Position numbers and translations under genes: made by a program. Shown piece after piece: positions 6,272 through 41,689 of a DNA stretch of 49,668 nt (positions are counted from its first letter, which is position 1; each line of letters opens with the position of its first letter). The notes under the pieces were generated by a model. That model was given only the letters and a program-made list of their open reading frames with translations. It searched no databases and was not told where the DNA came from. The DNA comes from Candidatus Puniceispirillum sp. (GTDB lineage Bacteria; Electryoneota; RPQS01; DYHQ01), in contig DYHQ01000003.1 in NCBI GenBank assembly GCA_020724065.1, positions 1 through 49,668 of the forward strand, given 5' to 3'.

Positions 6272-6320
6272 GCACTGCTCACGCGATAATTTTGCCTACA
6301 CTACCCTAAAGGAGTCATCG

Positions 6321-6348: not shown

Positions 6349-6367
6349 TCTCATTCAGAAAGCCATA

Positions 6368-9412: not shown

Positions 9413-9429
9413 TATCCATCATGTTGTAG

Positions 9430-9451
9430 GGGCAGACCAATGTGTCAGCCC
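9430..9451. repeat. Imperfect intergenic hairpin inside a tgtaggggcagacc...gtcagccc element
   Basis: gggcagac / gtcagccc pair with one A-A mismatch and a 6-nt loop. The element sits between the debranching-enzyme stop and the malK-type SD. Confidence 0.35.
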
Positions 9452-9497
9452 GTGATTGAAGATCGCAAGACTTCCGCACCAAGGGAGAATATGATTC

Positions 9498-10574: not shown

Positions 10575-10632
10575 AGTGGCAACGATAGAAAGAGAATCAG
10601 GCACTGCTTGTTCAATCAGAAGGAAGAAGGGA

Positions 10633-12105: not shown

Positions 12106-12170
12106 TTGCGGGCGGGTCGGGCGACCGCGTCGGCGAAAAACCACCGCGGCGGCGAATCTCCCGATTCGCC
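12106..12170. repeat. Two GC-rich hairpin elements in the spacer after the propeller gene
   Basis: 12106-12128, ttgcgggcgggtcgggcgacc-gc, is a degenerate copy of the element at 15816-15840 (one substitution and one missing C). 12151-12170, ggcgaatc-tccc-gattcgcc, is a perfect 8-bp stem. Confidence 0.5.
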
Positions 12171-12204
12171 CCAAATCTTGTCGCAGAAATTGTTGAGGCG
12201 CCAG

Positions 12205-14394: not shown

Positions 14395-14412
14395 TGAGGA
14401 AAAGAACCTTTG

Positions 14413-17968: not shown

Positions 17969-17983
17969 TAGGAGAGAGACCTC

Positions 17984-24324: not shown

Positions 24325-24744
24325 ATGGCTTCACGAATCTACATGAGTCAATCGAAACATGTTGCAACACATCCTATCGTTGACGACGATCCCATCGTAG
24401 CCCGAACCCTTGCCGAACAACTCGAGGTCTTGGGATTCAAATCAGCCACCGCGTCGGATGCCGAAACGGGAGATCGCAGTCTGCGGTCGGGAAGCCTTAA
24501 TTTGGTCTTGCTGGACTTGAGTCTACCTGACCGCAGCGGACTTGACCTCCTGCGTCGCTGGCAAGACGAGTTGGTTCAAGCTCCGACGATCATGATTTCA
24601 GGAACGGCCACCATTCCCGATGCCGTTGAGGCTCTCAAGCGCGGTGCTGTGGATTTCCTCGTGAAGCCGATTGACATGCGCCTGCTGGAGGTGGTCGTAA
24701 ACCGCACTTTGAGTTCGCAGAGACTGCGCAAGGAGAACCTGTGA
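24325..24744 (+). CDS. Response-regulator receiver domain (N-terminal part of an NtrC-family regulator, ended by an in-frame TGA)
   Basis: REC residues are present: IVDDDP, LVLLDLSLPDRSG, MISGTA and VDFLVKP. The ORF ends ...LRKENL-TGA in the same frame as the next ORF. Confidence 0.8.
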   Translation: MASRIYMSQSKHVATHPIVDDDPIVARTLAEQLEVLGFKSATASDAETGDRSLRSGSLNLVLLDLSLPDRSGLDLLRRWQDELVQAPTIMISGTATIPDAVEALKRGAVDFLVKPIDMRLLEVVVNRTLSSQRLRKENL

Positions 24745-24765
24745 CTGCGAGAGCTCACGCAGGCG

Positions 24766-25704
24766 ATGCCCGTCGAGTTTCTCGGAAGAAGCGATGCGAC
24801 GCGACGGTTGCTTGCAGAAGCCGCGAAGATCGCTCCGAGTGACCAACCGGTTTTGATCGAAGGCGAAACCGGTACGGGGAAGCAGGTTCTGGCGAGATTT
24901 GTTCATGCGCGTTCGGAAAGAGCCAACGAGCCTTTTGTCAGTGTGAACTGTGCCGCGATTACCGAATCGCTGTTCGAATCCGAGTTGTTCGGGCATGAAA
25001 AAGGAGCATTCACAGGAGCCATTGGTCGAAAGCCAGGCAAATTGGAGCTTGTGGGCAACGGAGTGCTCTTCCTGGATGAATTGGGTGAGTTGCCTCACAA
25101 CTGTCAAGCCAAGTTGCTCACTGCTCTGGAGGATCGAGTCTTTGAGCGGGTGGGAGGGACGCAGTCCTTGGAGTTCGAGGGACGAGTGATTGCAGCGACG
25201 AACCGAAATCTCCATCAGGAGACCGAAAAGGGAGCATTCCGCAAAGATCTTTTCTATCGCTTGAACACCTTCCGCCTGCAAATCCCTCCCTTGCGCGAGC
25301 GACCTGACGACATTCCGTTGTTCGTCGAGAAGACTGTCGAGCAATGTCGCCGCAAATATGGTCGCAAATTCACTCTGCCGGACGAAGAGACGATGGACGC
25401 TCTGAAACATTATGCCTGGCCCGGCAATGTGCGCGAACTTTTTCATCATGTGGAGCGCATCGCTCTCTTGAGCGAGTCGGCTGAAATTCCGAAGCGGATG
25501 TGGCTCTCCTTTCCTTCATCGCTGCTCGGAGCCAGTTCTGCGAAGACCGAGGACCTCCGTGCGGCCGTCGAGGCGTTTAAGAAGCAGCACATTCTCATGA
25601 TCGTGCAAAGTTGCAATGGGAATCAGACGGAAGCCGCGCGGCGACTGGGCATCGAGCGAACTCACCTGAATCGTCTCTTGGCCGACTATGAGGGCCGAAG
25701 ATGA
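24766..25704 (+). CDS. Sigma-54 interaction (AAA+) and Fis-type HTH domains of the same NtrC-family regulator
   Basis: Walker A GETGTGKQ, ESELFGHEKGAFTGA (GAFTGA loop), Walker B VLFLDELGEL, RKDLFYRLN, GNVREL, and HTH NQTEAARRLGIERTHLNRLL. In frame with 24325-24744. Confidence 0.85.
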   Translation: MPVEFLGRSDATRRLLAEAAKIAPSDQPVLIEGETGTGKQVLARFVHARSERANEPFVSVNCAAITESLFESELFGHEKGAFTGAIGRKPGKLELVGNGVLFLDELGELPHNCQAKLLTALEDRVFERVGGTQSLEFEGRVIAATNRNLHQETEKGAFRKDLFYRLNTFRLQIPPLRERPDDIPLFVEKTVEQCRRKYGRKFTLPDEETMDALKHYAWPGNVRELFHHVERIALLSESAEIPKRMWLSFPSSLLGASSAKTEDLRAAVEAFKKQHILMIVQSCNGNQTEAARRLGIERTHLNRLLADYEGRR

Positions 25705-27626
25705 AACGCACGGCTTTCATCGAACGCGCAGTGCTGATCGTCTTCTTGCTGTGCGTTGCTGTTGTGGGAACCTCCAATCTGGCGCAACGACGCGAGCTCG
25801 CCGTCAGCATAGCTCGTGATGAGAAGAATATCATCATTGAAACAGTTTGTCCTGGCAGCCACGCCCAAAAAGCCGGCATCCGAAAAGGAGATGTTGTCCG
25901 TGCGATTCGCGGCCGCACCATTGAGGAAGTGGCCTGTGCGGATTGGGAGGTGCGTCGTGCTCTGCCCAGCGAGACGCTCGCGTTCACTATTCAAAGGGGA
26001 GATTCTCTTTTCAGGGTCGGTTTGAAGGCCGAGCAGCCGATGACTCCTGGATTTCTTTTTCTGAACCAAATGATCGGACTGATCTTCGCGGTATTGGGCA
26101 TCGCGGTGTGGTGGGCGGGAGGTCGGGATCCGACCGTATGGGCATTTCTCAGGTTGAATATTCTTGCGGCTGTGGCCATATTGCTTGACTCGCAGTATAG
26201 CGTCTTCGCGTCGGTTGCACCGCGCACGCTTTATGGTGTTGCATGGCTGGGCGCCTATCTATTTCTTCCCGCGTCATTGGTAGATTTTCTGTTCCGCTTT
26301 CCACGCTTCACCTCGTTCAGGCGCACAGTACGCCTCTTGCTATTCTATGCACCCTTTGCATTCGTTTTGGTCCTCGCGGGCATCTCGTACATTGCTGCGC
26401 AGGTGAGCGGTCAGCTTGGATGGGTTTTGCGGTTCAGCTTTCTTTTCCGCATAGTCTTCGGGACCCTCTTGGTGTTCTATGTGCTGCTGTCTTTGGGCAG
26501 GTTGATTTATGTGGCATGGCGTCCTCTGAATGAATCGGAAAAGAATCAGAATCGTTGGCTGCTGCTCTGCACTGTGGTCGGCATTTCGCCTTTCATCTTT
26601 CTGCATAAACTCCCCACGGTGTTTGGGTGGCCACCCCTGTTGGCCAGCACGGCCGCCATCAGCTTTCTACTTGTTGTCCCGGTCGGTTGGGGCATGGCCG
26701 TCGCCTCCTTTCGCATGCTCAAGGTGGAGTGGACTCTGTCGAGATCAATGGTCTACCTGTTATCCGCGGGAATTGCACTCTATGCTGCGGCAGCGATGCT
26801 GATTCTGAGTTCCCGCGGTCTTCATACGAAGCTGCTCTTCTCTTCCGCTCTGCTATGGGGAATGGCGGGATTGCTTCTTGTGCTCGCGGCTCTGGCATTG
26901 GCAGATCGTCTCAAGGGACTCTTGGATCGGTTCTATTACGGCGATTGGTTTAGCCTTCAGCGGGCCCTGCAGGACCTGAGCGGCAAACTCTCCGGCACAT
27001 TGCTCGAGCGGGACATCGTGCGAATCCTCACAGAGGAATTGCCGGTTCTGCTCAAAATGGACAAGGCCCTGTTGCTCACGGTCTCGTCCGAGCAAATTCA
27101 GATTGCATCAGAGCCCTCGCCCAAGATCGAAGAACTCCGTCGAACGATTTCGACGGAATCGTTTCAACAGGAGTTGCGTCGTCTCTATGGTTCAGGCACG
27201 GGAATGCGTGTGCTGACTTCCGACGATCCCATGGCGGCGCTGGGTCATCAGTTGGCCGTGCCTCTGATCCATGCCGGAGAGCTGAAGGGCTGGCTTCTGC
27301 TCGGGCGGAAATTGTCGCGGGCACCTTATGGTCAGCGCGACTTCCAGTTGCTCGAGACCTTGCCGACGGTGGCGGGGCTGGCGCTCTCGAATGTGGAACT
27401 AAACAGTCGGCTTCTGGCGCAGGAGCGTCGCACGATGGTGGCGACCTTGGCGGGCGGAATCGCCCATGAGATTAACAACGCCCTCTATCCCGTTCTCGGC
27501 CAGGCGCAGCTCATCGAAGTGGCCGCATCAAAGAGCTCCGGAGAGGTGCAGCGGACAAGGTCTCTCAATCCGCTCAGATTATTGGAGACATGTGCGCTCG
27601 AATCAAACGAATCGCGGATAATCTGA
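25701..27626 (+). CDS. Sensor histidine kinase, N-terminal part: TM, PDZ, polytopic membrane domain, GAF and H-box
   Basis: ATGA overlap with the regulator stop. PDZ block IIIETVCPGSHAQKAGIRKGDVVRAIRGRTI. About 8 TM helices. GAF-like block ending AVPLIHAGELKGWLLLGRK. H-box GGIAHEINNAL. The reading frame degenerates after the H-box. Confidence 0.85.
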   Translation: MKRTAFIERAVLIVFLLCVAVVGTSNLAQRRELAVSIARDEKNIIIETVCPGSHAQKAGIRKGDVVRAIRGRTIEEVACADWEVRRALPSETLAFTIQRGDSLFRVGLKAEQPMTPGFLFLNQMIGLIFAVLGIAVWWAGGRDPTVWAFLRLNILAAVAILLDSQYSVFASVAPRTLYGVAWLGAYLFLPASLVDFLFRFPRFTSFRRTVRLLLFYAPFAFVLVLAGISYIAAQVSGQLGWVLRFSFLFRIVFGTLLVFYVLLSLGRLIYVAWRPLNESEKNQNRWLLLCTVVGISPFIFLHKLPTVFGWPPLLASTAAISFLLVVPVGWGMAVASFRMLKVEWTLSRSMVYLLSAGIALYAAAAMLILSSRGLHTKLLFSSALLWGMAGLLLVLAALALADRLKGLLDRFYYGDWFSLQRALQDLSGKLSGTLLERDIVRILTEELPVLLKMDKALLLTVSSEQIQIASEPSPKIEELRRTISTESFQQELRRLYGSGTGMRVLTSDDPMAALGHQLAVPLIHAGELKGWLLLGRKLSRAPYGQRDFQLLETLPTVAGLALSNVELNSRLLAQERRTMVATLAGGIAHEINNALYPVLGQAQLIEVAASKSSGEVQRTRSLNPLRLLETCALESNESRII

Positions 27627-28162
27627 ATCATCTCTCAGAGCCTTTTGCCCTCAAGACGGTCTTGTTCTCTTTGAACGATACGGCGCGAGATGCGCTGAGG
27701 CTATTGGGGGAAACGGCCGGACGCATCAAGCGGTTTGAACGCGACAATCCTCAAGCTCAGTTCCGACTTGTGACGGTGTTCGATAAGCAGCTTCCGCAGA
27801 TTCGAGGCGACCCTGACCAACTGAGCCAAGTTTTCGTCAATCTTATCCTCAATGCCGCGGATGCTATGGAAAGCCGAGCCCACGGAGTCCTGACTGTCGG
27901 GACTCATCTCGCGGATGACCAACGACATGTCGTCGGTTTTGTCGAGGACACCGGCGCGGGCATCCCGCACGAGCTCCACGACAAGATATTCCAGCCTTAT
28001 TTCACGACTAAGCCACGAGACAAAGGCACCGGCCTTGGGCTTGCTATGGTCCGCTCCATTATTGATGCTCACGGTGGCTCCGTACGGTTGAATTCCATAC
28101 CCGGTGTGGGCACGCGCGTCGAGTTTCTTCTCCCAATCCCTCCTTCTTTCTCTTCTCACTAA
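27590..28162 (+). CDS. Histidine kinase C-terminal part (end of DHp helix plus HATPase_c), in the -1 frame relative to 25701-27626
   Basis: N box VFVNLILNAADAM, G1 EDTGAGIP, F box, and G2 GTGLGLAMV. This frame is open from 27476 and reads ...DKVSQSAQIIGDMCARIKRIADNLNHLS upstream of the listed ATG. Confidence 0.8.
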   Translation: MCARIKRIADNLNHLSEPFALKTVLFSLNDTARDALRLLGETAGRIKRFERDNPQAQFRLVTVFDKQLPQIRGDPDQLSQVFVNLILNAADAMESRAHGVLTVGTHLADDQRHVVGFVEDTGAGIPHELHDKIFQPYFTTKPRDKGTGLGLAMVRSIIDAHGGSVRLNSIPGVGTRVEFLLPIPPSFSSH

Positions 28163-28270: not shown

Positions 28271-28285
28271 TGGCACGCACCTTGA
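28271..28285 (+). promoter_or_regulatory. Candidate sigma-54 (-24/-12) promoter, imperfect -12 element
   Basis: TGGCACGcaccTTGAt. The GG-N10 spacing is correct, but the -12 element is GA rather than GC. It lies 55 nt upstream of an AAGGAG SD and the ATG at 28340, directly downstream of the sigma-54 activator and kinase genes. Confidence 0.3.
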
Positions 28286-28339
28286 TTATGAAGCTCAGCG
28301 AAAAGGCAATCAGCCAGGCTTGAAATCAAGGAGTCCAAC

Positions 28340-29095
28340 ATGGTCCCGACAATCATTCCCCAGCATGCCCAACTGATTCGCTATCTGTTCTTTTTCGCCT
28401 CTGGGCTTATTTCCGCACATTCAATCGTGGTCGGACGCATCCATTCAATTGCTGAATGGCTTGCTTCCTCGGGCTATGCAAGACAAGCTCACAAGCCCGG
28501 ACTTAGACCATGCGTGCGGGTGCTCGTCATTTTCCTTATGGCGCTGCCTTCTCTTGCCTATTCAGCGAACTCCGCATTCGGCGAGGAGCACAAGCCTGCT
28601 CAGGTGACGAGCGGGTGGTTCACGGGAGGAGTTGGCGGGGGAGCGGGGACGAAAAACCTGTCGGGAATCGGCAGCTATGTCGCTCTGAGTTTGGCTTTGA
28701 ATGAGAATCGCTTGCTCTCTTTTCGGAGCAGTGGAGTCACCGAATTCGACATCTTTGGCTCAATCAGTCCAGACGAAAGTTCCACCGACTACGGCGTTCT
28801 ATACGGAATGCGCACATCGGGTCAGCACTTGGGTTACCTGTCCGTGTCTGCAGGCCTTTCACTCGTAAGCAGCGTGAAAAGAGGTCGCTTCCTCTCGTCT
28901 TCGGGAGGCTGGCTCTTCGGAACCAGCTCTTACGAGACCGTTCAGAAATACACGATCGGGATACCCTTTGAAGGGCAAGCGGTATTCAAGCCTTTTGACT
29001 TCATCGGCGTGGGGCTTGTCTGTTTCGGAAACATCAATCCCGAAAGGTCATTCGTCGGCGCAGCATTAGGATTGTACCTGGGTGACTTGAGGTAA
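28340..29095 (+). CDS. Hypothetical exported or membrane protein, possibly a small beta-barrel
   Basis: AAGGAG SD 7 nt upstream. Two N-terminal hydrophobic segments, the second ending LPSLAYSA. The rest is Gly/Ser-rich with alternating hydrophobic residues (GYLSVSAGLSLVS, IGVGLVCFGNI, VGAALGLYLG). No family recognised. Confidence 0.55.
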   Translation: MVPTIIPQHAQLIRYLFFFASGLISAHSIVVGRIHSIAEWLASSGYARQAHKPGLRPCVRVLVIFLMALPSLAYSANSAFGEEHKPAQVTSGWFTGGVGGGAGTKNLSGIGSYVALSLALNENRLLSFRSSGVTEFDIFGSISPDESSTDYGVLYGMRTSGQHLGYLSVSAGLSLVSSVKRGRFLSSSGGWLFGTSSYETVQKYTIGIPFEGQAVFKPFDFIGVGLVCFGNINPERSFVGAALGLYLGDLR

Positions 29096-29183: not shown

Positions 29184-30179
29184 ATGGGAAGACAAATGAA
29201 CGCTTCAACAGTTCGGTATGTACCCCACGGCGGTTTCTTGTCTGCCTATTTCGTGACAATGCGGCCTTATCTACTTTTCGTGTCGGGTTCGGCGGGAGCT
29301 GTGGGGTTTTCTTTTGCGCATGGTGCCCCGTGGACAGATGTCCTGCCTGGGTTTATTGTCCTGTTTCTATCCTATGGTTTTGGCCATGCGCTGACGGACT
29401 GTTTCCAGACGGATACGGATGCGATTTCATCTCCTTATCGCCCGCTCGTTCGTGGCCTCATCACGCGGCGGCAGGTCATGGCGACCAGTCTGCTCGGGCT
29501 CGCGCTTTCCGCGGTGGTTCTCACCGGGCTGAATCCGATGCTTCTTCTCTTGGGTGCAATGGCTGTTCTTGGATTGATTGCCTATACACCCTTTAAGCGT
29601 CGCTGGTGGGGCGGGCCGCTCTGGAATTCGTGGATTGTCGCGCTGCTACCCATTATCGGCTGGCTTTCGGACCCACGCAACCGTCTGGCAGATCTGTTCC
29701 AAATGCTCAATCCGATTTCCTTGCCTTTCTGGGCAGGTGTCGCAACGGTGTTTTTCGGTTATGCGAATTTCGTGGTCATGGGCTACTTCAAGGACATTTC
29801 AGCAGATCGCAAGACGGGCTATCAGACACTTCCTGTTGTTTTCGGCTGGCGAACCACTGCCATCTGCAGCGACATTCTCGCGGCGGCTGCCGCTCTGTCT
29901 GCAGGCGTGTCGGTTGCTGCTCGGACGCATGCTCGGATTGTTCCAATGGCCGTTTTGGGATTGGGCCTCTTATTCAGCATCACGGCACAGGTCGGCATTC
30001 ATCGCGTGCGAGATGAGATGCGCGCACACAAATCCATCTCGCATGTAGTGCGAGTCTTCATGCTCTATTCTCTGACCATCATTACCAGTAATGTGCCTTC
30101 GTGGCTTCCGCTTGGCATTCTCTATTATCAGCTTTTTGAGTTCGCGCTCCAGTCGCGGCCGGAAAAATCGCAGGTGTAG
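29184..30179 (+). CDS. UbiA-superfamily prenyltransferase (motifs closest to the ChlG/BchG/DGGGP-synthase branch)
   Basis: GAGGA SD. 8-9 TM helices. First Asp-rich motif LTDCFQTDTDAISSPYRPLVRG. Second motif YFKDISADRKTGYQTLPVVFG. Confidence 0.85.
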   Translation: MGRQMNASTVRYVPHGGFLSAYFVTMRPYLLFVSGSAGAVGFSFAHGAPWTDVLPGFIVLFLSYGFGHALTDCFQTDTDAISSPYRPLVRGLITRRQVMATSLLGLALSAVVLTGLNPMLLLLGAMAVLGLIAYTPFKRRWWGGPLWNSWIVALLPIIGWLSDPRNRLADLFQMLNPISLPFWAGVATVFFGYANFVVMGYFKDISADRKTGYQTLPVVFGWRTTAICSDILAAAAALSAGVSVAARTHARIVPMAVLGLGLLFSITAQVGIHRVRDEMRAHKSISHVVRVFMLYSLTIITSNVPSWLPLGILYYQLFEFALQSRPEKSQV

Positions 30180-30180
30180 C

Positions 30181-31122
30181 ATGCTTATTTTCCTGAATCC
30201 CAAGGCGCGCGCGGGTGCCGGTATGGAACGATGGGAAGCTGCCCGCGAAAAACTTCGGGAGCGAGGGCCGACGGAGTCGTTTGAAATCATCACCGATGCG
30301 GAGAAACTCTCTCAAGGCGTTGTAAGGGAATCCGAATGCGGTGATGGCCGCGTTGCCGCGGTCGGCGGGGATGGGACTGTGAATCGGCTCGTTGATGTAA
30401 TCATGCATCTCTCGCAACCGATGCGCGAGGGACTCATTTTGGGCGCTGTCGGCATCGGATCAAGCAATGATTTTCACAAACCCTATCAGCTTTCAGACTG
30501 CATTGTACCGGGCGTTCCGGCGCGGCTTTGTTGGAGTCCTCCACAATCGCACAATGTGGGTCAGGTAGATTGTCTGGGCGCAGATAAGAAGTGGTATCGT
30601 CAGTACTTCGTGGTGAACAGCAGCCTCGGGGTGCTGGCAGCAGCCAATCAGCTCTTTAACAGGCCTTGCGGTCTCGTGGCTTGGCTGAAACCGCGATGGT
30701 TGAACCTATCCATTTGGTATGCAGGATTGAAAACGCTAATGACCGAACCCGCATTTGAAGCAGTGATTCAAGATTCAACCATGTCATTTCGCGGCGCAAT
30801 TGTCAATTTGAGCATTCTAATCAATCGGCATATCAGCGGAGGATTCACCATAGATATTCCTGTCTCGTCCTCCCCTGCATCGTTTGGAATTGCGATGTGC
30901 GAAAGGATGAGCAAGCTACGCCGCTTGCGCACCCTGGCGGCCATGGCACACGGTCATTTCGTGGGCTTGCCAGGCACACGCACACTGCAAGCCGAAGAAA
31001 TCGCAATTCAAACGAATCGCCCAGTGCCGCTCGAACTGGATGGAGAGGTCTTCATGACGACACAGATTCATGTGGAACTTTTGCACGGAGCAATTCAAGT
31101 ATGTTCACCCGGAAGCCATTGA
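30181..31122 (+). CDS. Diacylglycerol-kinase catalytic-domain lipid kinase (YegS/LCB5-like)
   Basis: ATG 1 nt after the UbiA stop. MLIFLNPKARAG..., the GGDGT motif (VAAVGGDGTVNRLV), and a C-terminal LELDGE block. Confidence 0.85.
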   Translation: MLIFLNPKARAGAGMERWEAAREKLRERGPTESFEIITDAEKLSQGVVRESECGDGRVAAVGGDGTVNRLVDVIMHLSQPMREGLILGAVGIGSSNDFHKPYQLSDCIVPGVPARLCWSPPQSHNVGQVDCLGADKKWYRQYFVVNSSLGVLAAANQLFNRPCGLVAWLKPRWLNLSIWYAGLKTLMTEPAFEAVIQDSTMSFRGAIVNLSILINRHISGGFTIDIPVSSSPASFGIAMCERMSKLRRLRTLAAMAHGHFVGLPGTRTLQAEEIAIQTNRPVPLELDGEVFMTTQIHVELLHGAIQVCSPGSH

Positions 31123-32159
31123 ATGAAGGCTCTATCATAGAGCGATTCACGCGGAGTCAATCACGAGCACCGAATCAAATCAACCAGCTCCATGAGTCCG
31201 ATGCGGAGCTTGTGGACATTGGCGCCGAGTGTGGTGAGCTTCTTGCCATCACTTCGGATTCCATCGCAGAGGAAATCGCCAGCGGACTCTATGATGCTCC
31301 GTGGCTGATGGGATGGATGACGGCTATGGCCAATTTCTCGGATTTGGCGGCGGTCGGTGCGAAGCCTCTCGGCCTTCTGACCGCGGTTACGCTTCCAAAG
31401 GATGTGGATTCGGAGTTCGTAGATGAGCTTGGCGCCGGGATCGCCGCCGCCTGTCAGCACAGCGAGACTTTTGTTCTCGGCGGCGACACGAACTTCGCTG
31501 ATAACCTCGGCCTTACAGCCTCGGCCGTTGGAATGGTGCCGCGCGGCAAACAGATGATGCGTACAGGCTGCTCGATCGGCGACAAGCTATTCCTCAGCGG
31601 CCCGGCGGGAGCGGGAAATGCCTTTGCATTCATGCGTTTGATGGGCGGGCAGTCTGACACATCTTTCTTCCGTCCGGCTGCAAGGATTGCGGAAGGCATC
31701 GAGCTTCGAGAATTCGCAAGTTGCTGCATGGACACAAGCGATGGAGTGCTCGTCACACTGGATACACTGATTCGTCTGAATCGCTGTCGCTTCGTGATTC
31801 GCGAGGAGTGGGAGCAAATCCTATATCCCGAAGCACTCAAATTATGCCAGCGGCTTGAGCTTCCTCCGTGGGCGGCTTTGGCGGGAATTCACGGCGAATA
31901 TGAACTCTGCTTCTGCGTGAAAGCTGAGCGCGAGCGACCTTTCTTGGCTCGTGCGGAGACAGTAGGTTGGCGACCCATTCTCTTGGGCGAAGTGGTCGAG
32001 CGAGCAGGGATCTTTTTTGAGCGCGGGGAGAAGGCGCTGCCTCTAAATTTGGATTCGTACCGTGATTTGTCAAATGGGGTTTCTGCAAATCCAATCGAGT
32101 ACATAAAGGCACTCAGCGATTGTGCTCGAGCCATGGAGACGAGGTGGTATCATGTCTAA
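31101..32159 (+). CDS. AIR-synthase-related (PurM/ThiL/SelD/HypE superfamily) ATP-dependent enzyme, ThiL-like
   Basis: ESDAELVDIG...LAITSDSI, GWMTAMANFSDLAAVGAKP, VLGGDTN and CMDTSDGVLVTL. Overlaps the upstream kinase gene by 22 nt. Confidence 0.8.
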   Translation: MFTRKPLNEGSIIERFTRSQSRAPNQINQLHESDAELVDIGAECGELLAITSDSIAEEIASGLYDAPWLMGWMTAMANFSDLAAVGAKPLGLLTAVTLPKDVDSEFVDELGAGIAAACQHSETFVLGGDTNFADNLGLTASAVGMVPRGKQMMRTGCSIGDKLFLSGPAGAGNAFAFMRLMGGQSDTSFFRPAARIAEGIELREFASCCMDTSDGVLVTLDTLIRLNRCRFVIREEWEQILYPEALKLCQRLELPPWAALAGIHGEYELCFCVKAERERPFLARAETVGWRPILLGEVVERAGIFFERGEKALPLNLDSYRDLSNGVSANPIEYIKALSDCARAMETRWYHV

Positions 32160-32595
32160 CCATTCAATAATGGGTCGCAGGTTATGGCTGCTTGTCTTGC
32201 TTGAACTGGCGGTCGCGGCAGGAATTGTGGCTTATTGGGCATACTTCTTCATAGTTGGAGCGCCGAGGTCTATTTGCGGGCAGCTTGGAGATGGATACCT
32301 TATGTATGAAAGAGCATTTCCCGCTGCGGATGGCCTGCTCTGTCTTGCTCTGATCAACAGCGCCGTTGGGCTTCTGCGGAAACGAGCCTACGGGCCGATT
32401 CTCTCCATCGCGGCGGGCGGGGCGTTGGTCTTTCTTGGAGTTCTGGACGCCACATTCAATCTGACAAATGGAATCTTCTCTTTGGGGATCTGCGAGGGAG
32501 TTGTTAATGCTCTGATGAATCTCGCATGTGTTGCTTGTGGATCGGCGATGCTGCACCTTCCGATTCCGAAGCGGCCGATTAGAGTGGATAAATAG
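32152..32595 (+). CDS. Small four-TM membrane protein, unknown function
   Basis: GAGGTGG SD 4 nt upstream of the ATG at 32152. 8-nt overlap with the upstream gene. Four hydrophobic helices. Confidence 0.65.
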   Translation: MSNHSIMGRRLWLLVLLELAVAAGIVAYWAYFFIVGAPRSICGQLGDGYLMYERAFPAADGLLCLALINSAVGLLRKRAYGPILSIAAGGALVFLGVLDATFNLTNGIFSLGICEGVVNALMNLACVACGSAMLHLPIPKRPIRVDK

Positions 32596-32669
32596 GATTC
32601 AAATTTCGTATATTATCAAAGGGAAGAGTCGCACTCTGACGGTTAGTCAAAGCGATTGGTGGTGCAGTC

Positions 32670-33548
32670 GTGACAGAGCACGAACAGACGACCTGCTTCT
32701 TCGTATCGGATCTGCACGGACGGACACAACGATACCTGAAGCTCTTTGAGGCAATCGCGCGCGAGTGCCCGCGCGTTGTTTTTTTGGGTGGAGATATTTT
32801 GCCTCATGGATTCGCTTCCTTAGTGAGTGGCGATAGAGGTCATCGCAGTTTCATCGAAGATTTTCTGGCAATCGAGTTCGGCAAGTTGCGCAACGCCTTG
32901 GGTCAGGCCTATCCTCGGATTTTGGTCATTCTTGGAAATGACGACGGTCGCTTCGAAGAAAAGGCCATTTTGAATGGGGAGCGACAAGGGTTGTGGGAAT
33001 ATGTTCACAGGGCAAAGACAAACATTGGGAAGTATTCAGTCTATGGATATGCTTGCGTACCTCCCACGCCATTCCGGCTGAAGGATTGGGAACGCTATGA
33101 TGTTTCCCGCTATGTGGATCCCGGTTGCCTCTCACCTGAAGAGGGCTGGCGGACCGTGCCCGTGCCACAGAATGAACAGAAATACTCCACGATTCAGCAA
33201 GACCTTGACGAGCTTGCGCGTGATGTCAATCTGGAACACGCCGTCTTTCTGTTTCACACTCCGCCTCACAAGACGCATCTTGATCGTGCGGCATTAGACA
33301 CGAGACAGATTGATCATGTGCCACTGGATGTACATGTTGGAAGTGTCGCCGTGAGGCGTTTCATTGAATCGCGACAACCGCTGCTCACGCTTCACGGGCA
33401 TGTGCATGAATCGGCGCGGCTAACGGGCTCCTGGCGTGGCCATATTGGCAGAACCGCTATGTTCACCGCGGCTCATGACGGGCCGGAGCTCGCTCTCATT
33501 CGTTTTTCGCTGGAGAATCCAGAGGACGCTACTCGCGAATTGATGTAG
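32670..33548 (+). CDS. Calcineurin-like metallophosphoesterase
   Basis: Motifs FVSDLHG, FLGGDILPHG, ILGNDD, FLFHTPP and LHGHVHE. GTG start. Confidence 0.85.
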   Translation: MTEHEQTTCFFVSDLHGRTQRYLKLFEAIARECPRVVFLGGDILPHGFASLVSGDRGHRSFIEDFLAIEFGKLRNALGQAYPRILVILGNDDGRFEEKAILNGERQGLWEYVHRAKTNIGKYSVYGYACVPPTPFRLKDWERYDVSRYVDPGCLSPEEGWRTVPVPQNEQKYSTIQQDLDELARDVNLEHAVFLFHTPPHKTHLDRAALDTRQIDHVPLDVHVGSVAVRRFIESRQPLLTLHGHVHESARLTGSWRGHIGRTAMFTAAHDGPELALIRFSLENPEDATRELM

Positions 33549-36500
33549 GATTCTTGGCGGGACTTTTCAGGGGTAGCGGACGCGCGGCGTCGGTAACTGC
33601 TCCGATTTTTGCAGCAAAAGAGCTGCGCTTCGCAATGTCCTCATCACTCACAAAGTGCACATCGAGCAATCTGCCACAGCGGTAGCCTGTGTGCAAATAG
33701 TTCATTTCATCCAAGCAACGGCTCCAGCCCTCCAACCACTGCTCCAATCCTTCCCTCTGTTGTTCCGAGCCTGCAAAGTGAATCAGCAAATCAATGTCAC
33801 TTCCCGGGCCAGCCGAAGCGTTTTTTACACTCCCGAAAACATAGAGTGCTCGGACTCCAAAACGGTCGGGCTCCAGATGCTCCGCGATGCGTTCCGCCAT
33901 TTGCAGTCGCCAACGCCAATGTTCTTCCACATGCTGCTCCTGGGCAAAAGGTTTCTGCTCGCTCCTTTGTTCTGCAGCGGCAGCGGGCGAAACGAGGAAG
34001 CCCACCGCTTCGTCCAGGTCAGCATTCATCAGGACGCGAAGGACTCGACCGTCCGCTGCTCTTGGCACATCAATGACCCTCACACAGTCGGCAAGGTGGG
34101 CCGCTTCGGGAATAATATCCGGGAGGATATTATGTTCGGCGGTCAAAAAATGTTCATTGAAAATCACTTCTTTGTCATCGGGATAGAGCGGCAAGTAACG
34201 GATAGAAGCTTCCACCATGTCCTGAAAAAAATGCGTTCCAAATGAAAGATCAGGAACATAATTTCCGCGTTGTCGTGCGATCTCAATCAGCATCGCGGTG
34301 TTGTTGATGTCGGAATAAGTCACACTGACGCCGAGCTTGATATCACCGCGGCTGCCCCAACGACCCGGGCCCATGAGAATGAAGCTTCGTTTAGGCAGCA
34401 TTTTGTTAAGCTGACCCACAACTCGCCCGATGTCTTTCAGAGTGGGCAAATCACTGACCTCGCTGTAGCGCTGGGGGTCCACATAGACAATGTGGGTAAT
34501 GTCAGCGACTTTGCCGTTGGAAACATAGCGATTCGCCGAGAAGATGACATCGCGAGGCGGCATGTCCTTGGGAATCGGCATCGGTACGCAATCTTCGGCA
34601 TAGCTTTGCGGACGGCACTGGAGCAAATAGAAATCGCTGCCGTCGGAAGCGAACTCGATATCCACTGGCGTGCCCAACTTCTCTTGAAGGACGCTCAGAA
34701 TCGTTTGCACTTGCTTGACGAAGGGAGTGCGTGAGACAAGTCCTTCGAAAGTGACGACAAAATCCTCTGGCTTGAGGTCGAGCAAGAAACCTGTTGGCGA
34801 TTGAATATCATGGTCGCGACAGATGGAAATAGCCTGATTCAGCCACGGAAGGTCATGGGCATGCTCGCCCAAGAAGACATCAGCGTCAATCGTTTCAAAT
34901 CGGTTGGTTTCGAGATTGATGACATCCAATTTTCTTGGCGAATAGCGCACCACCTCTTCCGCCGTAATATTGACCCGAAGGCCGGGTTGACCGGGTGCAA
35001 CAAGAACCGGGTAGTCGTCGCTGAGTCGGTCCACGGCGCGGGTGCCAAGGCCGGGCACCATGCGAATCAAGCCGTCTTCGCGGCGAATCCGCGGCGACCA
35101 CCGGAACTCATTGTTGCTGAAGGCCACTCCGGCAAAAGCCGGCAAGAAATATTTTCCCACCTGCGTGCCGACAACCTCCTGAATCATGATGCCCATTTCT
35201 TCACGAAAGTCCAAAAGACCTCGCTCCGCACGGTATTGAATGGGGTCAGGGCCGAAAGTGGACGAATAAACCTCGGCTACGGCGTCCATCAGCGCTTCAA
35301 GGCGTTCTCGCTTTGTCCCTTGATTGGCGAGAAACAGGCTCTTGTATTTTCCGGAGAATGCGGCCCCAAATCGGTCTTCGAGAAGACTGGAGCTGCGAAC
35401 GATGAGTGGTCGTGCCTCAAAATCGTCGAGGGCCATCGAGAGTCCCTGCGTGATTTCCGGTGTGAAGCTGGAATGCTTGAAGACCTGCACGAGCTGATCA
35501 TATTCTCGGCGAATCTCGTCAATCTCTCTGTATTTGTGTTCGACGAGTTCTTCCAGATTATTATAGGTTACGAAGCTAAGCAAACCGTCCGAGGTGATAT
35601 ACCAGGTTTTGGGAATCTTGATGCTGCGCAGGATTTCCAATTCACGGCTCATTTTTTCTATGATGTGGGAAGCCAGAAAAAGTCCTGCGCTTTTCCCTCC
35701 GAGTTTTCCATGACTGCCCATCGGAAAGACGATGCGCTGCGAGAGATCAGAGAAGTCGCTGAAGTCCACATACTCTTTGGCGACATTGATGTATTCCAAT
35801 TGGTCGGTGAAGAATCGCCGAATCAGTGACACTCGCAGCTCCTTATCCGTCGTCGGTGAGAGTTCGGCTCCCTCGGCCGAAATGTGGGCGAAACGACGCA
35901 TGGCGTCGGTAATTTCCCGCAACGATGTGCCAAAACTTTCGAGGGCTGTAACCAAGAAACTCGACTTGTCCTCTTGGATCCATTTTTGAATCCAGGACAG
36001 GATCTCCGGATCGCTGAAGTAGGTCGCCGCCATATCGAGTATGGTCTCGCCAAGTTCCACGGAAACATCAAAGGCTCGCTTTCGAATCGGCTGATTCTCA
36101 TCCTCCGGAGTGCCGCCTTCTGACTGCATACGCTCCTGCAGGATCTCTGCCTCGCGGATACCGCTGGAGCAGAGACGAACGAACATTTTTCGCAAAATTC
36201 GGCGATAGAGATTCTGGTCTGTTCGGTGCAATAGCCCAAGCGCGACACGCCATTCTCCCTTTCCGCTCTCGGTCAGGTCTCGCTTAGCGGATTGCCAATC
36301 GTCGTGCATGCGCCGAAGCTGTTGATACTGGATGAAATGCCCCAATCGGTCGGCGATCGTGTTAATCAGTTTCGCCTCTTCGGAGAGGAAGGGTCCCACG
36401 GCCGCCGGCGGCATCTCGCGTGTGTAATAGACGCCGATCGTTCCGACGACTTCATCTTGGACAATGATGTCGGCGAATTGCGCCCACGGCGTCTCCTTGA

Positions 36501-36726
36501 AATTCGGCGGAACATAGACGGTGCCATCATAGGTGATTTTGGCTTGGCACACATCCGGATACTGCCAGCCCGGAGGAATCGCCTGCACAACGCCGTGAAA
36601 AATCCGTTCGAGGCTGGCGTCGGGATCCGTCAGAAGCTCCTCGATCTTGTACAGGCAATTCAGTTCCTTCGCTCTCTCGTGCAATGCGGAGAGTAGTTTG
36701 CCGATTGGCCGCTCGTCTTCATTCAT
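33529..36726 (-). CDS. Multidomain protein: GAF-like sensor, PEP/pyruvate-binding (PPDK_N-type ATP-grasp) domain and C-terminal MNT-type nucleotidyltransferase
   Basis: N-terminus ERAKELNCLYKIEELL...VGTIGVYY. PPDK_N blocks GKLGGKSAGL and LIVRSSSLLEDRFGAAFSGKYKS. Shared C-terminal blocks GPGRWGS and FGTHFF. NTase signature FGSVKNASAGPGSDIDLLIHF (G-S-x10-D-x-D) near 33790-33834. Confidence 0.9.
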   Translation of the reverse strand: MNEDERPIGKLLSALHERAKELNCLYKIEELLTDPDASLERIFHGVVQAIPPGWQYPDVCQAKITYDGTVYVPPNFKETPWAQFADIIVQDEVVGTIGVYYTREMPPAAVGPFLSEEAKLINTIADRLGHFIQYQQLRRMHDDWQSAKRDLTESGKGEWRVALGLLHRTDQNLYRRILRKMFVRLCSSGIREAEILQERMQSEGGTPEDENQPIRKRAFDVSVELGETILDMAATYFSDPEILSWIQKWIQEDKSSFLVTALESFGTSLREITDAMRRFAHISAEGAELSPTTDKELRVSLIRRFFTDQLEYINVAKEYVDFSDFSDLSQRIVFPMGSHGKLGGKSAGLFLASHIIEKMSRELEILRSIKIPKTWYITSDGLLSFVTYNNLEELVEHKYREIDEIRREYDQLVQVFKHSSFTPEITQGLSMALDDFEARPLIVRSSSLLEDRFGAAFSGKYKSLFLANQGTKRERLEALMDAVAEVYSSTFGPDPIQYRAERGLLDFREEMGIMIQEVVGTQVGKYFLPAFAGVAFSNNEFRWSPRIRREDGLIRMVPGLGTRAVDRLSDDYPVLVAPGQPGLRVNITAEEVVRYSPRKLDVINLETNRFETIDADVFLGEHAHDLPWLNQAISICRDHDIQSPTGFLLDLKPEDFVVTFEGLVSRTPFVKQVQTILSVLQEKLGTPVDIEFASDGSDFYLLQCRPQSYAEDCVPMPIPKDMPPRDVIFSANRYVSNGKVADITHIVYVDPQRYSEVSDLPTLKDIGRVVGQLNKMLPKRSFILMGPGRWGSRGDIKLGVSVTYSDINNTAMLIEIARQRGNYVPDLSFGTHFFQDMVEASIRYLPLYPDDKEVIFNEHFLTAEHNILPDIIPEAAHLADCVRVIDVPRAADGRVLRVLMNADLDEAVGFLVSPAAAAEQRSEQKPFAQEQHVEEHWRWRLQMAERIAEHLEPDRFGVRALYVFGSVKNASAGPGSDIDLLIHFAGSEQQREGLEQWLEGWSRCLDEMNYLHTGYRCGRLLDVHFVSDEDIAKRSSFAAKIGAVTDAARPLPLKSPAKNPTSIRE

Positions 36727-38473
36727 AGTTAATCACACCTCGTCCGGTTCGCCCGTCAACCTTCATCTGCAACGGGGACGACAGACGGACATGTCGAAGG
36801 TAGCGTGTTTCAACGATTTTGTCCTGTCGCTCCAGCCATTTCCACTGAATCTTGTACGGACTGTCGTGGTGGACAGAAAAATAGCTAACGCGAAAACTTG
36901 TGAGATTGTGGAAGAAGTGAGACCCTTGACTGAGCTCGATATTCATCTGAGGCAGCGTCGCTTCCACAATCACTCTGGCCGCGGATACTTGGCTCCAACT
37001 CACGGGAATACCCAGCCAGGGGTCCGAACTTCCCCATCGGCCAAAACCAATCAGCAGGTAGGGGTGCCTCTCAGCGGCCAAGTTCTTATTGAGCTCGGTG
37101 AGTTCATCGGCGATAATGCGCGTGTGTTTTGCCTCAAAAATTTCGGGCTTCACATAGATAATGTCTCGGATCGTGTTGAGCGTGCCGTTGCCCATGACCG
37201 ATTCGGAGGCTAGCAGGACTTTCTCGCCCATGAGGCTCGCCTTGTCTATTTCGACGGGCTCATTCGAGACAACCATCGGCCGGACTTGAAGAAATCCGAA
37301 TCGTGCCGGAAGACCATGCGCGGAGTCCAATGTCATGGCAAATTCAATCTCCACGGAGGCGCCTGACGCCTGCTCGCAGAGCTTCAGCAGTGTTGTGAGC
37401 AGTTGGTTCAAGGGGATGGCTTCCAGTTGAAGGATTGGGGCGAAAGTGAGAACGCGAGGACCCTGCCCACCGGTTCCGGGAGACAAGCGGTCTGACTGAG
37501 GATCATAAGTGGATGCAATGAACCGCAGCGTCTCATCCTGTTCGGCGTCCGCCAGGCGGGGTTGGACGAGATACTCCGTTTCCCGAATAGGATCATAAGC
37601 CGGTGGTTTTCCCATGTTCACAGCCCAGAACTCCACTTGCGTCTGCTCGAGCATGTCGCGCACGGATCCAAAGGGCGGGTTGATCGCGGGAAATGCCGGA
37701 GAGTATGTCCAGCACAGACTGCCCTCCACAACCGTTTTGCCCAAACCCAGAGCCAAATCAACGACACCCCCCTCGGGTTTGGCCTTGCCCATCGGATAGA
37801 AATTGTACGACCGCGCCACGCCGGACAGGGTCGGGTAGAAACGGTCGTGATGCCGCTCGCCAAGAATCTCCTGAATAATCACCGCCATTTTTTCATTTTC
37901 GATTTGGCGTTCCGCGCTATCAATGTAGGCCTTCGCCTTTTGGAAATAAGTGGATGCGTAGACGAACTTGATGGCTTCAATCAGCTTGTGAAAACGGGTT
38001 TCCACATCAAACGAGTTATTGGGAATCATTTTTGTTGCGTAAACGCCGGCAAAGGGATGATGCATCTCGTCTTCCAAGACACTCGAAGAACGGACGGCCA
38101 GCGGTTGATGCACTTTGGCAACTAATGCCATCAAATCGCCAATGTGCGCTGCGGGAAATTCAGCCTTCTGAAACGCGTGGGCGATGTGGTCATCGGACAA
38201 GTCGGAAAGTGCGACATGGGAAAGGTCATTCCGTTCTATGAATGCATCAAAGACATCCGTGGCCAACACGCAGAACCGCGGAATGCTCACCGTGATTCTT
38301 GGAAAGTCGTTTGGATGAACACCTTCGGCAAGCGTATCGCGGATGGATATCAATCCATTGGCCTTGCCGCCCAGTCCACCGGAACCGATACGCGAGAATT
38401 CCTTGCTGCTGGTGAAGAATTCTCGATCGAAGGGTGGAATCTCCATGTAGGTGACTTTTGGTTGTTCGGTCAT
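36719..38473 (-). CDS. PEP/pyruvate-binding (PPDK_N-type) domain protein, paralogue of 33529-36726, with no swivel or PEP-utiliser domain seen
   Basis: GGLGGKANGL, LAVRSSSVLEDEMHHPFAGVYATK, GFGRWGS and QGSHFF. Its stop overlaps the downstream start by 8 nt (ATGAATGA). Confidence 0.9.
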   Translation of the reverse strand: MTEQPKVTYMEIPPFDREFFTSSKEFSRIGSGGLGGKANGLISIRDTLAEGVHPNDFPRITVSIPRFCVLATDVFDAFIERNDLSHVALSDLSDDHIAHAFQKAEFPAAHIGDLMALVAKVHQPLAVRSSSVLEDEMHHPFAGVYATKMIPNNSFDVETRFHKLIEAIKFVYASTYFQKAKAYIDSAERQIENEKMAVIIQEILGERHHDRFYPTLSGVARSYNFYPMGKAKPEGGVVDLALGLGKTVVEGSLCWTYSPAFPAINPPFGSVRDMLEQTQVEFWAVNMGKPPAYDPIRETEYLVQPRLADAEQDETLRFIASTYDPQSDRLSPGTGGQGPRVLTFAPILQLEAIPLNQLLTTLLKLCEQASGASVEIEFAMTLDSAHGLPARFGFLQVRPMVVSNEPVEIDKASLMGEKVLLASESVMGNGTLNTIRDIIYVKPEIFEAKHTRIIADELTELNKNLAAERHPYLLIGFGRWGSSDPWLGIPVSWSQVSAARVIVEATLPQMNIELSQGSHFFHNLTSFRVSYFSVHHDSPYKIQWKWLERQDKIVETRYLRHVRLSSPLQMKVDGRTGRGVINYE

Positions 38474-41400: not shown

Positions 41401-41689
41401 CTTTGCCGATTTTGATTTGGATTTCCTTTTCGAGATCATCGTGCTCGTCTTTCGATTCCCACCATCCGCGCGTCATTGAAAACTGATCCTTGAAAGTACC
41501 GTCCGGACGAATGCGTTTGCCGGGGATGGTCTCCTCCGTGATCAGCGTCCAACTCACGGAGCGAGCGGTGTTCGAAAGGAGCGCTTGAAACGCAGAACGC
41601 AAGCCCCCTTCGTGCTTGACGCCATGGCCGCGCAAGCTCGCACGTGCCTCGTGGAACTCCTTAATGGCTTTGTGAGTCGGTTTGATCAT
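38480..41689 (-). CDS. Single-polypeptide restriction-modification-type enzyme: N-terminal PD-(D/E)xK-like nuclease, gamma-class N6-adenine methyltransferase and type ISP-like C-terminal domain (type IIG/IIL-like)
   Basis: Nuclease-like RIRPDG-x14-ESK (about 41452-41506). GIVYTPQPIVDFM. SAM motif FIIDPCTGTGNF (about 40645-40675). Catalytic VIGNPPY (about 40337-40357). C-terminal GLLHHPGYREKFADNLKRELPRIPF...LHLNYE...WRVEKMRL...GNRSALEWVIDQYQ...SGIVSDPN. No helicase motifs. Confidence 0.92.
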   Translation of the reverse strand: MIKPTHKAIKEFHEARASLRGHGVKHEGGLRSAFQALLSNTARSVSWTLITEETIPGKRIRPDGTFKDQFSMTRGWWESKDEHDDLEKEIQIKIGKGYPTDNTIFEDSQRAILFRSRRKAGEADVSNATQLASLLNAFYEYTQPNIESFEQAVVQFKEHVPELGKGLLGKIEEGLQKNKKFQAAFGSFFELCQRSLNPNIREDAVKEMLVQHLLTERLIRTIFNKPEFTRRNVIAAEVEKVIDSLVGPYFNREEFLASLDRFYKAIEEAARTIESFSDKQHFLNSIYERFFQGVSVKVADTHGIVYTPQPIVDFMCASVEEVLKSEFGKTLGSEDVFIIDPCTGTGNFIVNLIHRIPSQDLERVYRGQLFANEVMLMPYYIAALNIEHAYYERTSKYEPFEGLCFVDTLDLVEEDIRKQKAHADLFAPKNTERVERQRKAPITVVIGNPPYNMGQVNENDNNKNRTYERLEARLRETYVRDSKATLRNKLFDPYVKFFRWATDRLGDRDGIVCFVSNNSFIDQIAFDGMRKHLVQDFDSLYILDLKGNIRKDSMRDGIPLGELHTVFGLSTMVGVSISVLVKHRNRVKRQLFYSDVPFRWIRVQKFQLLNEAKMVGGIEWQSVKPDSRHNWLTAAHTDEFESFVSIGSKEAKAAKGKDAETIFKIHSCGIVTARDSYSYSHSLETLAKRAEIFVEAYNETVDKLKRKHGKTDPESLIDVNDPRIKWSHRTKESAKKLASSQFEEKWLRRSIYRPFDKQYAYFDDLWIERRYLQPHLFPTPHSESENIAICLAGVAAEKDFYSLAVDSIPNYAFVGFGSACQCFPFYVYNEDGSGRRENITDWALGQFRQRYGGGVGDGLRPPLRQIGKWDIFYYVYGLLHHPGYREKFADNLKRELPRIPFAPDFWAFADAGKKLAELHLNYEKLPPIWEETPPIPPARGGGSASAKKSRSAASSRHGTGCCLVFDEKKRLDWRVEKMRLSKDKRELKINDSISVVGIPPETFQYRLGNRSALEWVIDQYQIKTDKRSGIVSDPNRDDNPEYIVRLVGQVIRVSLETVRIVQSLPEKSG
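38821..38895. repeat. GC-rich palindrome plus paired homopolymer tracts inside the RM-type gene linker
   Basis: gtcggctgc-tt-gcagccgac is a 9-bp perfect stem (38821-38840). G7-ATA-G7 lies at 38879-38895 (C7-TAT-C7 on the coding strand, encoding PPIPP). The segment encodes the low-complexity stretch PPARGGGSASAKKSRSAASSRHGTGCC. Confidence 0.5.

Follow-up and report, generated by a model that had tools for sequence, protein, structure and literature searches.

What could be made by a compact gene set that joins a UbiA-type membrane transferase to two kinases of different folds? The question is raised by a 49,668-nt stretch of contig DYHQ01000003.1 (hereafter the window), from an assembly labelled Candidatus Puniceispirillum sp. 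(GCA_020724065.1, here called G000; 2.33 Mb in 168 contigs, 88.7% complete). In the window, a UbiA-superfamily transferase gene is followed by genes for a diacylglycerol-kinase-like (DAGK-like) lipid kinase, a ThiL-like kinase of the PurM superfamily and a small protein with four predicted transmembrane segments (4-TM). The first three of these genes stay together across many phyla, and comparison of the related loci indicates that the four genes form a unit common to many uncultured bacterial phyla, which probably makes an undescribed membrane lipid. By analogy with the known chemistry of the enzyme families involved, we tentatively propose that the two kinases would convert a lipid alcohol to its diphosphate, which would then be used by the UbiA enzyme.

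Layout and conservation of the cassette

On the forward strand, the UbiA-superfamily gene (29184-30179, PF01040), the gene of the DAGK_cat/YegS-fold lipid kinase, a divergent member of its family (30181-31122, PF00781 and PF19279), that of the ThiL-like kinase (31101-32159, PF00586, with AIRS N and C domains) and that of the 147-aa 4-TM protein (32152-32595) are followed by the gene of a calcineurin-like metallophosphoesterase (32670-33548, PF00149), with successive intergenic spacings of +1, -22, -8 and +74 nt. The initial annotation of the window had taken these five genes for one operon. We re-derived the same coordinates and spacings, the Pfam and NCBIfam matches agree with the domain families it had named, and both of the UbiA motifs that it quoted were located in the protein. 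The claim of a unit holds for the four genes from UbiA to the 4-TM protein and fails for the phosphoesterase, homologues of which were found in none of 160 related loci (80 from GTDB and 80 from metagenomes). Similarly, among the partners ascribed to UbiA, namely two ATP-dependent kinases and a phosphoesterase, both kinases stand and the phyletically uncoupled phosphoesterase does not.

A protein search with the window UbiA scored 8,000 candidates and retained 2,127 proteins at E <= 0.001; among the matches listed (n=120), all homologues have at least 51% identity over at least 92% of the query. Identities of 50-57% are spread over metagenome-assembled genomes (MAGs) that bear the labels WOR-3, Aminicenantes, Eisenbacteria and Cloacimonadota, among others. 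When each GTDB species was represented by a single genome, the scan yielded UbiA relatives in 328 stretches, and the spread of the cassette is put at 328 or more species genomes. The best 80 of these stretches, taken with 7-kb flanks, constitute our GTDB locus set, to which we added a second set of 80 metagenome loci. The carriers are labelled as Aminicenantes, WOR-3, Eisenbacteria, Zixibacteria, Cloacimonadota, Ignavibacteria, Gemmatimonadota and others.

The presence of the two kinase genes in these loci was scored by tblastn. Among the assessable loci, the DAGK-like gene adjoins UbiA and is co-directional with it in 76 of 78 from GTDB and in 72 of 72 from metagenomes; of the four remaining loci among the 80 from GTDB, two stop at the UbiA gene and two (L062 and L070) truly lack the kinase. 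For the ThiL-like gene the counts are 68 of 73 assessable GTDB loci (seven were not assessable) and 55 of 55 assessable metagenome loci; it was not found in L016, L040, L062, L070 and L072, although each of these loci extends downstream for 2.2 kb or more. In L016 and L040 a missing ThiL-like gene goes with a truncated DAGK-like gene, suggesting that the two kinases were lost together. The conservation of gene neighborhood, which had been proposed as a check, is thus borne out, since the UbiA-DAGK-ThiL-like triad is kept across many phyla.

The 4-TM protein appears as an accessory member of the cassette. It has four hydrophobic segments in a crude hydropathy scan (the two kinases have none), it has no Pfam or NCBIfam match, and an atlas search returned only hypothetical membrane proteins. 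Its gene follows the cassette in 20 of 80 GTDB loci and 19 of 80 metagenome loci, and homologues stand behind the cassette in two nearer relatives, L105 (63% identity) and G120 (60%). Among 30 relatives of G000, the ThiL-like cassette gene is present in only two (G120, 68%; G149, 44%), and this patchiness suggests gain or loss of the cassette as a unit.

The literature search found no paper describing a cassette of UbiA with two kinases, and the statement of the initial annotation that the combination is uncharacterized can be kept for what is now a conserved, UbiA-centered gene set of lipid type.

In most other phyla the triad is part of a bigger cluster, which the initial annotation had not noticed. 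To define its further genes, ORFs of the 80 GTDB loci were called with a crude open reading frame (ORF) picker and clustered all against all. Four additional families recur: an alpha-oxoamine synthase (44 loci), a B12-binding radical SAM protein (41 loci), short-chain dehydrogenases/reductases (SDRs; 38 loci, often in two copies) and an acyl-CoA ligase (15 loci). In a full cluster such as that of L041 the order is oxoamine synthase, UbiA, DAGK-like kinase, ThiL-like kinase, acyl-CoA ligase, SDR and radical SAM protein. The best model for the oxoamine synthase is the CFB-type serine palmitoyltransferase (SPT; 474 bits vs a cut-off of 640), while the cluster SDRs reach 139-142 bits vs 400 with the ketosphinganine-reductase (KDS-reductase) model. 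The SDR step is tied to the UbiA step by a fusion protein of 616 aa, P0121, the UbiA part of which is 45% identical to that of the window. Another long ORF, P0122 (726 aa), combines truncated UbiA and DAGK parts with a full AIRS/ThiL-like part; it was seen on one contig only, may be an artefact of assembly or gene calling, and is not counted as evidence.

None of the four additional families is found beside the cassette in the window. The G000 homologue of the oxoamine synthase (46% identity) lies on contig C152 near an acyl-CoA ligase and a fab operon, and that of the radical SAM protein (38-40%) lies on contig C40, whereas most copies linked to the cluster in other phyla share 61-89% identity with the reference. 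As the extension genes are not adjacent and their G000 homologues are far more divergent, we regard the window as carrying the minimal form of the cluster. In the Aminicenantes-type carriers, likewise, the oxoamine synthase homologues found elsewhere in the genome are only 45-47% identical.

The extended clusters recall the sphingoid-base route (SPT, 3-ketosphinganine reductase, and sphingosine or ceramide kinase), of which they hold three matching parts, the oxoamine synthase, the SDRs and the DAGK_cat kinase. They differ from it in that the oxoamine synthase and the SDRs are below the model cut-offs, and both are absent at the window locus. Furthermore, the known sphingolipid pathways have no counterpart to the UbiA, ThiL-like or B12-radical SAM partners.

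Two observations on these genes stand apart. The C152 stretch of G000 (458-14454) encodes an SPT-like oxoamine synthase (410 aa), a 380-aa ORF without a known family, a ComM-like protein, an acyl-CoA ligase and plsX-fabH-fabD-fabG-acpP-fabF, and it may be the organism's own sphingoid or aminolipid start. In some loci labelled as WOR-3 and Planctomycetota, a DUF3419 protein and a GNAT acyltransferase are inserted between the oxoamine synthase and UbiA (L007, 5933-6967; L034, 4851-5945; and L073; cluster c18). We take DUF3419 to be associated with the betaine-lipid enzyme BtaA, and the insertion hints at a lineage-specific head-group or N-acyl chemistry.

The transferase and its two kinases

The window UbiA protein matches PF01040 at 101.2 bits (gathering score 34.2) and falls below every curated NCBIfam cut-off for the UbiA family. 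The top NCBIfam models are those of digeranylgeranylglyceryl phosphate synthase (DGGGPS) type (NF009521, 59.6 bits vs 296; NF009523, 59.4 vs 269; NF009522, 50.7 vs 353), and they are followed by the ChlG/BchG models (NF005742, 45.8 vs 313; TIGR01476, 40.7 vs 212.3; TIGR02056, 37.9 vs 436). A profile of the UbiA family searched against PDB matched chlorophyll synthase (9sau, E 1e-11) and DGGGPS (6m31, E 1.6e-8). Both the NCBIfam ranking and the PDB matches agree with the earlier view that this protein is nearer to the ChlG/DGGGPS branch than to the quinone or haem O branches.

A tree of 78 rows was computed with IQ-TREE in its 'quick' mode. It contains 64 cassette proteins (that of the window and those of 63 of the 80 GTDB loci, the other 17 having been dropped by the ORF picker), 11 probable DGGGPS of Thermoplasmatota and three further UbiA paralogues of G000, and it has no ChlG/BchG row. 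The DGGGPS reference rows are best matches at 230-287 bits, just under the model cut-off of 296, and they number 11 because one of 12 archaeal loci yielded no matching ORF. All 64 cassette proteins fall into a single clade (SH-aLRT 99), which has a stem of length 6.03 and lies apart from the probable archaeal DGGGPS. The G000 paralogues (a MenA and a DPPR-synthase-like protein, both above their cut-offs, and one weak member) sit on very long branches, so that their placement is unreliable. Phylogenetic placement, a check that had been suggested for this enzyme and that here covers DGGGPS, MenA and a DPPR-synthase-like paralogue, thus separates the cassette clade from probable DGGGPS and does not put it inside DGGGPS: as judged from this alignment, the cassette UbiA is a clade of its own outside the probable archaeal DGGGPS.

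The clade also has a modified signature. Its first Asp-rich motif reads T-D-x-x-Q-x-D-x-D, compared with N-D-x-x-D-x-E-x-D in the DGGGPS rows; T replaces N in 63 of 63 rows, Q replaces the central D in 62 of 63, and there is an extra aspartate, D77. Residues D72, D79, R86, K138 and the pair D204-x3-D208 are kept in 63-64 of the 64 UbiA rows. With the DGGGPS of known structure (MjDGGGPS, PDB 6m31), the cassette protein shares the fold family, the second DxxxD motif, the arginine of P-x-R-P and the loop lysine; the two differ in that the cassette enzyme is paired with two kinases and has no obligatory geranylgeranylglyceryl phosphate synthase (GGGPS) partner. With ChlG/BchG (9sau) it has in common the stretch D-x-D-A-I-x-x-P-Y-R-P, but it scores only 38-46 bits with models whose cut-offs are 212-436, and the window is without tetrapyrrole genes. 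The domain search of the window proteins found no quinone genes either, as the initial annotation had stated, and no match to the BchG model at E <= 1e-30 was found in 51 genomes of the class of one carrier (G007). Current source annotations give the members of this clade as DGGGP synthase or 4-hydroxybenzoate prenyltransferase, and neither label should be used for them.

The DAGK-like kinase exceeds the cut-offs of PF00781 (47.4 bits) and PF19279 (32 bits), and it stays below the cut-off of the YegS/BmrU family (TIGR00147, 65.9 bits vs 118.65). It has the catalytic domain and the YegS_C beta-sandwich of the soluble DAGK_cat-fold lipid kinases. Within the cassette family, G62-G63-D64-G65, E285, D287 and G288 are invariant, and T66 and E289 are each conserved at 90% or more. 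A PDB search with the single kinase sequence found no relative; the family profile matched lipid kinases only, namely DgkB (2qv7), YegS (2bon), BmrU (3t5p), AGK and SphK1.

For the ThiL-like protein, ThiL is the nearest member of the PurM superfamily: it is the best PDB match (5dd7, E 4e-31), and TIGR01379 gives 153.8 bits vs a cut-off of 184.15. The PurM-type fold and the AIRS N and C domains are common to ThiL (5dd7, 3c9t) and the cassette protein, and by analogy the chemistry is probably the same, the conversion of a phosphate monoester to a diphosphate. The cassette protein differs from ThiL in that it is below the cut-off and is fixed beside a membrane transferase and a lipid kinase. A canonical ThiL of 248-278 bits is encoded elsewhere in the genome of three of five other carriers, and the cassette copies score 148-177 bits in the four of those five carriers that have the full-length gene. 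Since the canonical ThiL is above the cut-off elsewhere in these three genomes, the cassette gene is a paralogue, which should not be annotated as ThiL. In G000, G002 and G003, no gene of the genome matches the ThiL model better than the cassette copy, and no other ThiL above the cut-off was found. The only other PurM-fold genes in G000 are SelD and HypE, and ThiE was not found in this 88.7% complete genome, which may belong to an organism that depends on external thiamine diphosphate or on another route.

A candidate lipid-diphosphate route and its rivals

The proposed relay would start with the DAGK-fold kinase, which would phosphorylate the hydroxyl of a lipid alcohol, either a prenol or a sphingoid-type amino alcohol of the kind that the oxoamine synthase and SDR genes of other phyla could provide. 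The ThiL-fold kinase would add a second phosphate, in the way that ThiL acts on thiamine phosphate, to give a lipid diphosphate. The membrane UbiA enzyme would then bind this diphosphate via its Asp-rich motifs and use it as an alkyl or prenyl donor, so that the chain would be moved to an acceptor and pyrophosphate released. ThiL itself turns a phosphate monoester into a diphosphate, and the UbiA-family enzymes use diphosphate donors.

Support from known systems is of two kinds. According to the available part of the ThiL study, the distal part of the ThiL substrate is exposed to solvent, which would leave room for a lipid tail (PMC6416309). The salvage of prenols by one kinase for polyprenol and another for polyprenyl phosphate is known biochemically, and, in the accessible parts of the two accounts, few genes have been identified and these belong to other families (PMC9782597, PMC9385802). 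In phytol and prenol salvage, VTE5 or FOLK and then VTE6 supply the UbiA-type enzymes VTE2 or ChlG, and the logic from alcohol to monophosphate to diphosphate to transferase is that of the proposed relay; VTE5 and FOLK are described there as modestly similar to dolichol kinase and VTE6 as resembling COG1836 (PMC9782597, available part). By description, VTE5 and VTE6 are set apart from the cassette kinases, which are soluble, have no hydrophobic segment, and belong to the DAGK_cat and PurM folds. Both VTE proteins are CTP-dependent integral membrane proteins.

Several points weigh against the proposed relay. G000 encodes IspH and two polyprenyl synthases, so that prenyl diphosphates can be obtained without the kinases. 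In many lineages the accompanying genes for oxoamine synthase and SDRs point to an alcohol of sphingoid type, which speaks against a simple prenol salvage; at the same time, we know of no precedent for UbiA chemistry on a saturated or sphingoid (non-allylic) diphosphate donor, and neither in G000 nor in the Aminicenantes-type clusters does the oxoamine synthase adjoin the cassette. The absence of the canonical N and of the central D from the first UbiA motif means that diphosphate binding may differ. A clean fusion of the two kinases, or of a kinase with UbiA, was not found in the fusion search. Finally, the gene order does not give the order of steps, and what the kinases phosphorylate could equally be the product of UbiA or the acceptor.

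A wider form of this proposal is possible but rather doubtful. It would have the cassette represent an unrecognized ATP-dependent two-kinase route to a lipid diphosphate, with the first PurM/ThiL-fold enzyme acting on a lipid phosphate, and with the product serving as donor for a new UbiA clade of modified metal-binding motif, which would give many uncultured lineages of the FCB group and the Acidobacteriota an undescribed class of membrane lipid. If it is true, the PurM superfamily reaches lipid substrates, and the supply of a non-standard lipid diphosphate to a prenyltransferase-type enzyme is explained. If the alcohol is a prenol, the two kinase genes would be the long-sought bacterial genes for prenol and prenyl-phosphate kinases. 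The phyla of the carriers are almost without cultured members, and the cassette would be a concrete candidate source for the unassigned environmental lipids of anoxic sediments.

The main rival, which we consider unlikely, assigns the roles differently and places the phosphates on the acceptor. Here the DAGK-fold kinase would phosphorylate a single-chain lipid alcohol (a sphingoid base or ceramide-like molecule), UbiA would attach an ordinary prenyl chain from geranylgeranyl diphosphate (GGPP) or a similar donor to a free hydroxyl or amino group, and the ThiL-fold kinase would make a head-group diphosphate, the product being a prenylated lipid (pyro)phosphate. Prenylation of a lipid phosphate by UbiA would parallel the action of DGGGPS on geranylgeranylglyceryl phosphate (GGGP), and the nearest solved and curated UbiA relatives, to judge from the 9sau and 6m31 profile matches and the DGGGPS-type models at the top of the NCBIfam ranking, are O-prenylating enzymes. 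The prenyl diphosphates that G000 makes for itself would serve as donors. The SPT-like oxoamine synthase, the KDS-reductase-like SDRs and the acyl-CoA ligase of the extended clusters fit such an acceptor, as does the DAGK_cat fold of the sphingosine and ceramide kinases (SphK1 was matched at E 5e-3), and, as most extended loci have no N-acyltransferase, the second chain could be supplied by UbiA. On the other hand, we know of no precedent for a PurM-fold enzyme that builds a diphosphate head group on a lipid, or for a lipid pyrophosphate as a stable product, and many forms of the cluster, that of the G000 locus among them, lack the oxoamine synthase.

The five-gene operon of the initial annotation implies another reading, in which the metallophosphoesterase is a pathway phosphatase that strips phosphate or diphosphate from the product. 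Its gene is co-directional with the cassette, begins 74 nt after the 4-TM gene with no convincing terminator between them, and would provide a chemically sensible step after two kinases. This reading is nevertheless improbable in view of the distribution of the gene. Besides its absence from all 160 loci, the position after the 4-TM ORF is taken in L105, the UbiA of which is 67% identical to that of the window, by a secreted SRPBCC-type protein. Among the 30 relatives of G000, the phosphoesterase (54-71% identity) and the cassette are mutually exclusive: nine genomes have the phosphoesterase and not the cassette, and the two with the cassette (G120 and G149) lack the phosphoesterase. In G122 and G125, which have no cassette, the phosphoesterase gene is convergent with the gene for a homologue of a 1065-aa PPDK_N-nucleotidyltransferase, exactly as in the window. 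As it is uncoupled from the cassette and paired with the PPDK_N gene in these genomes, the phosphoesterase belongs to the downstream synteny block and is a neighbor of the cassette.

It had also been suggested that the UbiA protein might be a DGGGP synthase of bacterial origin, with archaeal-type diether lipids as the outcome, in line with what has been proposed for bacteria of the FCB group, and this we find very hard to sustain. The DGGGPS-type models rank top, though weakly, the carriers are mostly of FCB-group lineages, and the GGGPS gene PcrB is present in five of 14 other carriers. Against these points, the model scores are 50-60 bits where 269-353 are required, the cassette clade is a branch of length 6 away from the probable archaeal enzymes, and the N and central D of NDxxDxxxD are replaced. 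PcrB was not found in G000 (88.7% complete) or in nine of the 14 other carriers; two of the carriers with PcrB, G001 and G002, are single contigs, on which some 0.2 and 0.4 Mb, respectively, separate it from the cassette, and in the other three it is on a separate contig. One archaeal MAG (G006) has a DGGGPS-type gene (179.9 bits) besides the cassette UbiA (43.3 bits). The arrangement further differs from that of the Cloacimonetes, an FCB-group case in which, in the part of the publication available, GGGPS and DGGGPS are co-localised (PMC7852524). Neither a dependence on GGGPS nor the link to archaeal ether lipids is thus retained for the cassette.

That these are unrelated housekeeping genes travelling together, the ThiL-like protein being the thiamine-phosphate kinase of the cell and the DAGK-like protein a general diacylglycerol kinase, is scarcely credible: the copies that are the best ThiL-model matches of G000, G002 and G003 could also serve thiamine metabolism there, but the triad has stayed adjacent in many phyla, with overlapping reading frames, the cassette has a patchy distribution among close relatives (two of 30) that a housekeeping gene would not have, a canonical ThiL stands alongside the cassette copy in three of five carriers, and no ThiE was found in G000.

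Regulation and the remaining genes of the window

The initial annotation placed a candidate sigma-54 promoter and a sigma-54 activator just upstream of the cluster. Both exist, but the promoter-like element precedes another gene, not UbiA. The -24/-12-like element (TGGCAC-N5-TTGA; TGGCACGCACCTTGAT, forward strand, 28271-28286) is the sole match in the window to the sigma-54 pattern with at most one mismatch, and matches with at most two mismatches (24 vs 26.4 expected) are not above chance. It lies 54 nt upstream of a 251-aa ORF (28340-29095, forward strand), the product of which begins with hydrophobic segments and matches neither Pfam nor NCBIfam. Conservation of this ORF is limited to L005 (57%) and, weakly, G120 (25%); it is possibly the first gene behind the element, although its membership of the cluster is uncertain. 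An exact sigma-54 pattern just upstream of the first cluster gene was also seen in L005, L058, L063 and L069. Over all loci (1.59 Mb), the pattern occurs 10 times, compared with 5.0 times on average and at most 11 times in shuffled sequences; as this total is not clearly above the shuffles, only the positions of the four matches are suggestive. Sigma-54 control of the unit is plausible from these sequence patterns.

A possible regulator is the two-component system encoded upstream on the same strand (24325-28162), which consists of an NtrC-type receiver with a sigma-54 AAA+ activator, followed by a PDZ-GAF histidine kinase. The NtrC-type gene is split into a receiver (24325-24744) and a sigma-54 AAA+/HTH part (24766-25704) in the same frame by a TGA at 24742-24744, whereas homologues elsewhere, e.g. 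in L029, are each encoded by one unbroken ORF (about 450-470 aa). The histidine kinase gene (25701-28162) has a frameshift near 27560-27626, between HisKA and HATPase_c, and its L005 homologue is one ORF. The in-frame TGA and the frameshift are either assembly errors or signs of decay to a pseudogene. Genes for histidine kinases and response regulators or for sigma-54 activators flank the cluster elsewhere as well (cluster c8 in 14 loci and c13 in four).

Downstream of the cassette, the 3' ends of the phosphoesterase and PPDK_N-nucleotidyltransferase genes (32670-38473) overlap by 20 nt (33529-33548), and the pair is kept at 62-75% identity in G122 and G125. A PDB search with the single phosphoesterase sequence found no match. 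A Type ISP restriction-modification enzyme (PF18135, PF22240 and N6_Mtase) and a second PPDK_N gene (38480-41689) stand between the PPDK_N-nucleotidyltransferase gene and a glutamate dehydrogenase gene; as the latter directly follows the PPDK_N-nucleotidyltransferase gene in G122, this segment looks like an insertion.

The remainder of the window is made up of the two-component system, the two PPDK_N proteins, the Type ISP restriction enzyme, glutamate dehydrogenase, starch-utilization genes and type IX secretion cargo. The starch genes form a big block for the utilization of starch or glycogen at 263-18796, including alpha-amylases, a GH57 protein, a debranching enzyme, CBM20/AMPK-CBM domains and an ABC sugar transporter, and several of the proteins encoded in this block bear type IX secretion C-terminal sorting domains.

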